Positions 13,832-17,220 of a stretch of DNA of 64,000 nucleotides are shown piece by piece. Below the pieces are notes generated by a model. It ran no database searches, was not told the origin of the DNA, and was given only the letters and a program-made list of their open reading frames with translations. Position 1 is the first letter of the stretch. Every line of letters starts with the position of its first letter. The position numbers were made by a program, and so were the translations under genes. Origin of the DNA: Escherichia phage BYEP01; the sequence record OR757453.1; one strand, written 5' to 3'.

Positions 13832-14312
13832 TTTTAAAAACTCGCTGGTATGATTTAGATGATGGGGATGATGGCATTCCAGTTGATAGAGTTGACTGGA
13901 ATGGCTGTTCCGAAGATATGAAAAATTTGCTGATTAGGGAGTTTAGAATGGGATATCAACCAGTTAAGCCATCTACCGCAACAGATGATAAATTCGTGTG
14001 TATTCATAATGGTCGCGCTAAATTAACGAACGCTGATTGGTTCACAGATAAAATTATGATTTTGTGGTATATTATTAGTCTTCCTGTGACATCATTCGTA
14101 TTTTACTTTTTTATAAAAAATCCAATGGACAGAATAGGAGATTGGATTCTTTTAACCATACTTGTTAATATTTTTACAGCAGCAATATTATCTGGGATAT
14201 GGTACACGTTCATTGAAATGCCATGGCGGCTACGCAGACAACAAAAGATTTTTGATGAAAAGAAATATACTCAAAATTTAAATAACTTTATCACTGAATG
14301 CAGGAAATTAAA

Positions 14313-14316
<4 letters not shown>
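13828..14316 (+). CDS. membrane protein, paralog 3 of 3
   Basis: 2 TM helices; C-terminal FITECRKLK. Confidence 0.55.
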
Positions 14317-15285
<969 letters not shown>

Positions 15286-15289
15286 AGTT

Positions 15290-15319
15290 GTTTACTTTCT
15301 CTTAGAATTGTGATAGTAT
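15290..15319 (+). promoter_or_regulatory. early promoter of denV
   Basis: gtttac..N18..tagtat. Confidence 0.55.
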
Positions 15320-15344
15320 ATTCACAGTTACTTGGAGGGATAAA

Positions 15345-15761
15345 ATGACTCGTATTAATTTGACTTTAGTATCTGAACTTGCTGATCAACATTTAATCGC
15401 AGAATACCGCGAATTGCCACGCGTTTTTGGTATAGTTCGTAAACATGTGGCAAATGGTAAACGGGTTAAAGATTTTAAAATATCTTCCGAGTTTATTTTA
15501 GGTTCTGGTCATGTTACGTTCTTTTATGATAAGTTAGAATTTTTGCGAAAGCGTCAATCAGACATTATAACGGAATGCTTAAAACGTGGGTTTAGTATAA
15601 AAGATACTGAAGTTCCTGACATCAGCGATATTCCAGCAGAATGGAAAAATGATTATAATCCATGCAAATCAGCTATTAAATTGAGTCAACAACGACTCGA
15701 TGAAAAAATTTTAATGAAGCCACACTGGTATAAATACTACGGTAAAACTATTTACATTTAA
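15345..15761 (+). CDS. denV: endonuclease V, pyrimidine dimer DNA glycosylase (138 aa)
   Basis: [17 protein letters not shown]...WYKYYGK matches remembered T4 endo V; 138 aa. Confidence 0.92.
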
Positions 15762-15772
15762 AGGAAACAAAA

Positions 15773-16087
15773 ATGAAAACATATAAAGAATTTATTGCAG
15801 AATCCGCCAACCAACGCGTTGAAGGTGGTTATATTTGGATTGAACAAGTTGAGCCACCGAGCCGCACTTCTACAGGTAAATGGAAAATTACTGTTGATGG
15901 TCCTGGTGGTAAACGTAGGACTCTTAAAGAAATTAATGGGTACTATGAAGAAGCTCTTTCTGACGCGGGTACTTATATGATGCAAATCATGATTAAAAAC
16001 CCAGAAAATCGTTTTGCGGCTAGAGTTTTCCGCCGTATTGGAAATAAGCTTTATGATGCATATTCTAAAAACTTCCCTAAAGAATAA
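15773..16087 (+). CDS. internal head protein with capsid targeting sequence (IPII/IPIII-like)
   Basis: N-terminus MKTYKEFIAE. Confidence 0.7.
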   Translation: MKTYKEFIAESANQRVEGGYIWIEQVEPPSRTSTGKWKITVDGPGGKRRTLKEINGYYEEALSDAGTYMMQIMIKNPENRFAARVFRRIGNKLYDAYSKNFPKE

Positions 16088-16105
16088 AAATTAAAGGATA
16101 CACAC

Positions 16106-16408
16106 ATGAAAACATGTCAAGAATTTATTACTGAAGCGCGAGTGAGTGCAGGTAAATTAGAAGCCGCTATAAATAAAAAGGCCCATTCATTTCATGATTT
16201 GTCCGATAAAGACCGTAAGAAACTTGTAAGCCTTTATATTGACAAAGAGCGTATTCTCGCTCTTCCTGGTGCTAATGAAGGTAAACAGGCCAAGCCTTTG
16301 AATGCTGTCGAAAAGAAAATTGATAACTTTGCTTCTAAATTCGGTATGTCTATGGATGACCTTCAGCAAGCGGCTATCGAAGCAGCTAAAGTAATTAAAG
16401 GTAAATAA
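16106..16408 (+). CDS. internal head protein with capsid targeting sequence (IPII/IPIII-like)
   Basis: N-terminus MKTCQEFITEA. Confidence 0.7.
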   Translation: MKTCQEFITEARVSAGKLEAAINKKAHSFHDLSDKDRKKLVSLYIDKERILALPGANEGKQAKPLNAVEKKIDNFASKFGMSMDDLQQAAIEAAKVIKGK

Positions 16409-16410
16409 CA

Positions 16411-16440
16411 GTTTACTTTCTCCTAAAATTGTGATAGTAT
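16411..16440 (+). promoter_or_regulatory. early promoter, near-duplicate of denV promoter
   Basis: gtttactttctcctaaaattgtgatagtat vs 15290-15319. Confidence 0.5.
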
Positions 16441-16465
16441 ATTCATAATTACTTGGAGAGGTAAA

Positions 16466-16529
16466 ATGACTCGATGAAAAAATTTTAACGAAGCCACACT
16501 GGTATAAGTATTACGGCAAAAATATTTAC
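16466..16529 (+). pseudogene. denV remnant: start codon + 2 codons fused to last ~55 nt of a second denV copy
   Basis: atgactcg then atgaaaaaattttaacgaagccacactggtataag..., aligning to denV 15345-15352 and 15701-15760; deletion junction at repeat GACTCG; reads M-T-R-stop. Confidence 0.7.
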
Positions 16530-16680
16530 ATTCAAATAACATGGGAACAAGCTGGACCTCATGATTCTGTGAGGGATTCCCGCCAACCTGTAATAAGGTC
16601 GAGCCCAAGTGCGGTAATGGGTAAATACAGAAATGGACGATTCATGCGCCATGGAATGGCCCAAATTTAGAGAGAATAAA

Positions 16681-17220
16681 ATGAGAACATTTTTAACTGG
16701 TCCTTATCTATCCCTGATGAATGCTTTTACACACCATTCTGATGCTAGAGTAGAAGAAATTTGTAAAAACGATTATATCCCACCATTTGAAGACTTACTC
16801 AAACAGTATTGCACACTTCGACTAGATGGTGGACGTCAATCCGGTAAATCAACTGCTGCGACCAATTTTGCTGCTAATTGGTTGTATGACGGTGGAACAG
16901 TTATTGTTCTTTCTAATACTTCAGCTTACGCTAAAATTTCTGCAGGCCACATTAAAAAAGAATTTTCTCGTTATTCTAGCGATGATATTCGATTCCGTTT
17001 ATTTACTGATTCTGTCCGTAGTTTTGTTGGTAATAGAGGTAGCAAGTTCAGAGGTTTATCGCTTTCTCGAATTTTGTATATAATCGATGAGCCTGTTAAA
17101 TCTCCTGATATGGATAAAATTTACGATATTCATATTGAAACTGTGCAACACTGCTGCAATAGTAAATTCTGCATTGGTGGTATTACTCGTCCACAGTTTT
17201 TCATAATCGGAATGCAATGA
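16681..17220 (+). CDS. P-loop NTPase-like hypothetical protein
   Basis: Walker A GGRQSGKST, Walker B-like LYIIDEP; SD upstream of MRTF. Confidence 0.55.
   Translation: MRTFLTGPYLSLMNAFTHHSDARVEEICKNDYIPPFEDLLKQYCTLRLDGGRQSGKSTAATNFAANWLYDGGTVIVLSNTSAYAKISAGHIKKEFSRYSSDDIRFRLFTDSVRSFVGNRGSKFRGLSLSRILYIIDEPVKSPDMDKIYDIHIETVQHCCNSKFCIGGITRPQFFIIGMQ

Follow-up and report, generated by a model that had tools for sequence, protein, structure and literature searches.

Why does the DNA between the lysozyme gene e and vs.8 of Escherichia phage BYEP01 contain, besides an intact denV gene, a second stretch that starts like denV and ends like denV? The window analysed here, 64,000 nucleotides of sequence record OR757453.1, comes from a T4-like phage (Tevenvirinae) whose best 24-kb match is with the RB3 group, at 96%, and among megablast matches the full local gene order was found only in Shigella phage SH-2, at 97.6%. 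The features of the locus are collected in Table 1. For the vs.8 homologue at its right end the start is ambiguous, as the longest open reading frame begins at 16633 and the ATG at 16681 (MRTFLTG) is the start annotated in most relatives; the record of phage RB18 annotates its homologue as Vs.8. Besides having the Walker A motif, the product weakly resembles the terminase large-subunit ATPase (PHROG 2, E=7e-6).

Table 1. Features of the e-vs.8 locus of phage BYEP01 (positions in the 64,000-nt window).
Feature	Position	Strand	Basis and remarks
nudE	14298-14753	+	ORF
e, lysozyme, 164 aa	14791-15285	+	ORF; 96-98% identical to e of T4, SH-2, UGKSEcP2 and slur04; left anchor of the variable locus
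Promoter-like leader, copy 1	15290-15344	+	Repeat D2; GTTTAC ... TGnTAGTAT, then GGAGGG ribosome-binding site; upstream of intact denV
Intact denV, endonuclease V (pyrimidine-dimer DNA glycosylase), 138 aa	15345-15761	+	PF03013, PHROG 1183
GACTCG, 5' microhomology copy in intact denV	15347-15352	+	Sequence
GACTCG, 3' microhomology copy, intact denV codons 117-119	15694-15699	+	347 bp from 5' copy
ipX, internal-protein-like, 104 aa	15773-16087	+	ORF; PHROG 3966 (unknown function)
ipII, internal protein II, 100 aa	16106-16408	+	PHROG 7857 internal virion protein, E=1.5e-53
Conserved 5' sequence of internal-protein genes	16106-16137	+	Encodes capsid-targeting peptide; putative crossover zone between slur04-like left arm and ipII-remnant module
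Promoter-like leader, copy 2, part of denV remnant	16411-16465	+	Repeat D2
Remnant mini-ORF ATG ACT CGA TGA (M-T-R-stop)	16466-16477	+	Deletion junction GACTCG at 16468-16473
3' tail of deleted denV copy	16474-16537	+	Repeat D1; out of frame with remnant ATG; former stop codon is CAA
Conserved 143-nt intergenic region upstream of vs.8	16538-16680	+	Holds unannotated non-coding element, core about 16545-16660
vs.8 homologue, 179 aa, Walker A motif GRQSGKST	16681-17220	+	PHROG 1488, E=9e-78; right anchor of the locus

The copy next to e has the properties of a functional endonuclease V gene. Its product belongs to the PF03013 family (Pfam; E=2e-13, 51 bits against a cutoff of 23), with the match covering the catalytic N-terminal region, and is matched over its full length by PHROG 1183 (E=2e-62, positions 1-138 of 139). 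Thr2, Arg3, Arg22, Glu23, Arg26 and the C-terminal WYKYY are present in the translation; these are the residues that we take to be important in T4 endonuclease V, with Thr2 as the nucleophile after removal of Met, together with Glu23, Arg3/22/26 and the aromatic C-terminus WYKYY. At the DNA level the gene is 95-97% identical to denV of slur04 and UGKSEcP2. As judged from its sequence, the e-proximal copy at 15345-15761 is the working UV-repair gene, and since the phage retains one intact denV, no UV-repair defect is predicted for it.

The two denV-like regions were compared by local alignment and with a repeat finder, which were used instead of a global MAFFT alignment that had mis-placed the leader. 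Repeat D2 pairs 15290-15352 with 16411-16473 (63 nt, 90%) and comprises the leader, the ribosome-binding site and ATGACTCG of denV, and repeat D1 pairs 15691-15762 with 16465-16536 (72 nt, 90%) and comprises the denV 3' end. The two copies of D2 are spaced by 1121 nt and those of D1 by 774, and the difference of 347 equals both the missing segment and the distance between the two GACTCG sites of intact denV (15694 minus 15347); in the remnant a single GACTCG is found, at 16468. A 35-nt stretch of the leader has just two sites within the 64 kb, with 0 expected from shuffles. The initial annotation had described 16411-16529 as the denV promoter and the first 8 nt of the gene followed by the last ~55 nt of denV; the two repeats bear out this arrangement, except that the tail comes to ~64-70 nt, and the identity of about 85% that had been given for the two copies has to be raised to a measured value of about 90%. 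The junction lies where it had been placed, at the GACTCG that occurs at codons 2-3 and again near codon 117 of the intact gene (15693 is the first base of codon 117, CGA), and the reading of the remnant as M-T-R-stop is correct. The similarity goes beyond the promoter and extends to the 72-nt denV tail.

No open reading frame for the catalytic domain is present in the remnant at 16466-16537: translation would end after three codons, codons 3-118 are missing and the tail lies in another frame. The stretch 16411-16537 thus appears to be a pseudogene, the dead remnant of a second denV copy that is predicted to encode nothing useful. A lone GACTCG at the junction and a missing length equal to the repeat spacing are what a deletion between short repeats leaves behind. 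As 34-38 pairs of repeated 6-mers are present by chance in a gene of 417 nt, the hexamer would mark where the break was resolved, not the enzyme involved, and need not be a special site.

The closest undeleted relative of this copy is found in phage UGKSEcP2, whose denV occupies the T4 slot between ipII and vs.8 (L002:2637-3188) and carries GACTCG at L002:2639 and 2986, again 347 bp apart. In-silico removal of the 347-bp interval from this gene yields a sequence identical to the remnant at 124 of 132 positions (8 differences), in agreement with the earlier proposal that a second copy had been deleted through a 6-bp repeat. The tail of the remnant is 95% identical to the tail of the 183-aa UGKSEcP2 denV, with CAA common to both, and the remnant leader is 91.5% identical to the leader of intact UGKSEcP2 denV and 100% identical to those of RPN187 and SH-2. 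As the remnant too has CAA instead of the stop, it evidently derives from this 'long' denV allele type. In the 'long-form' denV of UGKSEcP2 the TAA stop is replaced by CAA and the frame continues for 45 codons through the conserved intergenic element, giving 183 aa. The replacement of the denV stop by CAA is common to UGKSEcP2, the remnant (compare 16474-16670 of the window) and phage TB004.

Database matches that span the junction in a single piece (E=1e-63) were obtained in 16 listed rows, which represent at least 15 distinct phages, HX01 being present under two accessions. The carriers are RPN187, AV112 and AV113 (100% identical), then PHB12, NHEP29, SH-2, SP1, W143 and N2, and further AV117, HX01, SF, ZQ3, ECCR664 and TH58; two genera, Tequatrovirus and Mosigvirus, are represented among them. 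The nine carriers that were aligned have the same junction, with 0-4 differences from the window per 132 nt, and in phage SF the CGA codon of the remnant is replaced by CAA. In several carriers the former frame of the tail is now interrupted by a TAA in place of a Tyr codon, indicating decay. The remnant of the Mosigvirus RPN187 is 100% identical to that of the window. Identity to the window in HX01 and RPN187, both Mosigvirus, is 97-100% for ipII and the remnant, whereas the flanking genes show only 76% (e) and 86-87% (vs.8); the near-identity of the module between divergent flanks argues for lateral movement of ipII, remnant and intergenic region together.

All nine inspected carriers have an intact denV beside e. 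Alleles were compared in seven of them: in SH-2 and N2 it is of the allele type of the window, and in HX01, RPN187, W143, PHB12 and SP1 it is a divergent allele of ~69% DNA identity, with a 93-aa ORF before the gene. For NHEP29 and SF, the intact gene beside e is known from annotation. A search with the internal 331 nt of denV gave 707 places, distributed over 702 records; at most 5 records can thus hold two such matches, which makes a genome with two full denV copies rare at best, and no genome with two intact denV genes, the presumed intermediate, was identified among the phage records searched. From its distribution, the 347-bp deletion is apparently old, would not have occurred in this genome and would have arrived on the shared module of ipII, remnant and intergenic region. 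Small 'hypothetical proteins' are annotated on the reverse strand over the remnant and the intergenic element in HX01 (gp066 and gp067, L006:3081-3241) and NHEP29 (L014:3519-3638). Such small reverse-strand ORFs over the remnant are probably annotation artefacts.

The left and the right part of the locus have different relatives. With slur02, slur04 and about 20 similar phages, megablast gave a continuous match through nudE, e, denV and ipX that breaks off at 16137 (query position 1438), after the first 32 nt of ipII, where the conserved stretch encoding the capsid-targeting peptide comes to its end. The ipII module of other phages matches the window at 99% from 16106 on. The ipX gene is 93-97% identical to genes in slur04, SH-2 and W143, and ipII is 95% identical to ipII of T4 and 99% identical to the copies in HX01, RPN187, W143 and N2. 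Both products begin with a sequence of the capsid-targeting type, which comprises about 10 residues ending in Glu (MKTYKEFIAE in ipX, MKTCQEFITE in ipII). Repeat D3, which pairs 15758-15802 with 16091-16135 (45 nt, 84%), covers the ribosome-binding site and the capsid-targeting-peptide codons of both internal-protein genes and is a likely substrate for cassette exchange. By its matches, the window appears as a mosaic of a slur04-like left part (e-denV-ipX) and a right part (ipII-remnant-intergenic region-vs.8) that seems to be a module circulating between phages.

The anatomy of the repeats, a parental allele with both hexamers, a junction common to the carriers and the boundaries of the mosaic are direct observations, and from them we infer, with a probability of about 85%, that the locus contains a denV pseudogene formed by the 347-bp GACTCG deletion, which spread on a lateral module and was joined here to a slur04-like arm. 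A second denV copy would have stood between ipII and vs.8, the position of denV in T4, and a single deletion between two GACTCG would have removed codons 3-118 of a UGKSEcP2-like 183-aa allele. The event may have been slippage or illegitimate recombination at a short direct repeat, as far as a mechanism can be read from the junction only, and would have left behind the promoter-like leader, the ribosome-binding site, ATGACTCG and the out-of-frame tail. The old remnant would then have spread, nearly unchanged, across Tequatrovirus and Mosigvirus within its module. The simplest history of the window would require one homologous crossover in the ~32-nt conserved 5' end of the internal-protein genes, by which a slur04-like e-denV-ipX arm would have been joined to a genome already containing ipII, remnant and vs.8, direction and order of events being presumed.

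The presence of the same leader and tail twice, 1.1 kb apart, could also suggest a recent tandem or dispersed duplication of denV within this genome and subsequent deletion of one copy. However, the two copies differ at about 10% of positions and yet each is 96-100% identical to relatives in other phages, and the identical junction exists in HX01, RPN187, W143, PHB12 and SP1, whose intact denV is the ~69%-identical allele, which makes such a duplication very improbable. The initial annotation had likewise preferred a junction between phage lineages to a recent duplication, and this is upheld by copies that are 90% alike, a remnant 100% identical to that of RPN187 and an intact copy 95-97% identical to those of slur04 and UGKSEcP2. 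That the remnant might be a sequencing or assembly artefact (a collapsed repeat), or a chance similarity limited to a generic promoter, has nothing specific in its favour and can practically be discarded, given that at least 15 independently sequenced phages from several countries have the same junction, that the similarity takes in 72 nt of coding tail, and that the 35-nt leader occurs just twice in 64 kb.

Other phages have lost denV sequences at this locus independently, by deletion at short repeats or altogether. In G2133-type phages (L003:2580-2700) the leader passes through GGTAAA directly into nt 82 of the intergenic region, in TB004 (L010:3062-3291) denV has a 187-bp internal deletion at AATGG and several amino-acid changes, and in G8 (L011:3001-3111) the e-proximal denV has lost the stretch between the ATG and about codon 103 by a deletion through AATTATG. 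Only broken denV copies are seen in the regions fetched from G8 and TB004, and in the locus region fetched from RB18 (L012) denV is missing. Since the deleted denV is the only copy in the region fetched from TB004, redundancy would not be required for denV loss. The cassette that follows e varies as well, being denV in the window, ipIII in T4, ipII in UGKSEcP2 and a 157-aa internal protein in RB18.

The leader deserves separate consideration. The first 49 nt of copy 1 are 94% identical to the T4 e-ipIII intergenic region, and across phages the leader that follows e and the one that follows ipII are 85-94% alike. Visible elements are GTTTAC, a spacer of 18 nt, and TAGTAT with an upstream TG; a simple sigma-70 consensus scan scores the leader below threshold. 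A terminator scan gave no terminator-like site or stem-loop near 15286-15344 or 16409-16465. In the record of Yersinia phage fPS-65, the homologous site carries a 'promoter' annotation. In part, the label promoter-like is owed to what we assume to be the T4 early-promoter consensus. In the history proposed above, the remnant leader may still act as an early promoter towards vs.8.

The remnant could have been retained as a regulatory cassette, in which an early promoter, a strong ribosome-binding site and the 3-codon mini-ORF supply transcription, and perhaps coupled translation, to the intergenic element and the vs.8-regB cluster, a proposal that we regard as rather unlikely. Equally doubtful is its corollary that the coding part of denV was lost and the control part is under selection. 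Consistent with this proposal, three independent deletion alleles (the one described here, the G2133 type and G8) spare the leader and have their breakpoints no more than about 10 nt from the start codon, carriers show 97-100% conservation of the remnant, and the fPS-65 record places its 'promoter' at the homologous site. However, the alleles were found by queries containing the leader and are subject to ascertainment bias, slur04 and RB18 have neither leader nor remnant before the same intergenic region, which indicates that these are not required, and the tail is no less conserved than the leader, a pattern that points to recent common descent more than to selection. A statistical argument for non-random retention of the leader was dropped, since the queries required the leader. 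The further idea that the leader has been spared repeatedly because it drives early transcription into the ~110-nt element and vs.8-regB, with the element being an undescribed structured RNA (a leader, processing or antitermination signal), is speculative and less likely still.

The intergenic element just mentioned lies outside the deletion, yet belongs to the shared module. Across many genera of the Tevenvirinae its core, ACCTGTAATAAGGTCGAGCCCAAGTGCGGTAA, hardly varies, and in Vequintavirus, where it is unannotated, it is 95% identical; the reading frames through the element are not conserved. With a covariance model, a single copy was detected in the window (16525-16650, 116 bits) and 54 copies in other fetched loci. 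Compensatory changes occur in two proposed helices (e.g. CCUGG/UCAGG, CUCGA/UCGAG and GCCGA/UCGGU), and the covariation score is 0.16-0.21, as compared to 0.06 in shuffles (0 of 500) and 0.07-0.10 with the pairing partner slid by one column. Single-sequence folding of the element was no better than that of shuffles, so that thermodynamic stability is not claimed. In Vequintavirus and in unclassified 46-kb IMG/VR contigs, the element is followed on the same strand by tRNA gene clusters at a distance of 175-550 nt. ARAGORN detected no tRNA-like gene at 16300-16800, a scan against Rfam 15 at E<=1 did not return the element and gave two sub-threshold chance matches in 15200-16800, and the sequence of the element was not found in the searchable literature. 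A search for copies in bacterial genomes with an 18-mer of the core gave two matches lacking flanking similarity, which were rejected as chance. The 25-kDa vs.8 of T4 that is cited in the W143 record would need a start inside the element, and the T4 ATG there reads in frame into vs.8. On present sequence evidence we would describe it as an unexplained conserved element of ~110 nt, for which the evidence of RNA structure is suggestive and incomplete.

Phage SF has two copies of the element, one of T4 type and one of JD18 type (L016:3621-3745 and L016:4102-4246), on either side of an additional ORF of 393 nt that is inserted between the remnant and vs.8. The arrangement of these copies suggests that the element marks cassette boundaries.

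What is seen here is a known process in a known variable region, the new part being an unannotated, laterally shared denV pseudogene; the remnant leaves knowledge of denV or of phage evolution unchanged. Its value is that exact breakpoints can be documented for a rearrangement at the T4-like locus of anti-restriction internal proteins. Ip2 and Ip3 inhibit GmrSD-type enzymes (PMC12373910), and polymorphism of internal-protein genes has long been known, according to the citation of Repoila et al. (1994) in PMC12373910. The locus would illustrate how T4-like phages swap entire cassettes where short sequences are conserved and afterwards shed genes that are redundant or dispensable by deletion at short repeats. 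For annotation, it is of use that the remnant is unannotated or lies under spurious reverse-strand ORFs and could pass for a second denV start, and the shared junction is a handy marker for lateral exchange between Tequatrovirus and Mosigvirus. In the literature, nothing specific was found on denV together with internal proteins or vs.8. The GGAG of the T4 denV ribosome-binding site is a poor RegB site (PMC1702504), which has no bearing on the remnant.

In the hyperplastic regions of T4-type genomes, accessory genes are shuffled modularly through repeated promoter cassettes, the PeSLs, each consisting of an early promoter plus a stem-loop (Arbiol et al., 2010, PMC2839356; Comeau et al., 2014, PMC4122927). 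The present locus resembles these in that non-essential genes each have a similar leader, the order of cassettes varies among phages and breakpoints lie in short conserved sequences. It differs in that the join would fall within codons for the capsid-targeting peptide instead of a promoter, and in that the leaders have no adjacent stem-loop or terminator; because the adjacent stem-loop is missing, they were not classed as PeSLs. A close comparison is the T4 locus itself, whose order e, ipIII, ipII, denV was confirmed as given in the initial annotation. Both loci are flanked by e and vs.8 and share ipII (95% DNA identity) and the conserved intergenic region, and the remnant fills the exact slot of denV in T4. 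In contrast, T4 has one denV, on the vs.8 side and of another allele (77% over the first 290 nt), whereas in BYEP01 the working denV adjoins e, in a non-T4 position, ipX replaces ipIII and the copy on the vs.8 side is gutted.

Spontaneous T4 deletions between short direct repeats were described in the classical rII deletion studies. As in those, a short repeat is present at both ends in the parent, one copy is kept and the length of the deletion equals the spacing of the repeats, but here the deletion is a natural, fixed and laterally spread allele, not a laboratory mutant. Natural differences in UV repair among T-even phages, of which T2 is reported to lack the v-gene function of T4, are a further parallel, denV being dispensable and variably present (none in RB18, broken in G8 and TB004, in the regions fetched), with the difference that the phage of the window keeps one intact denV.
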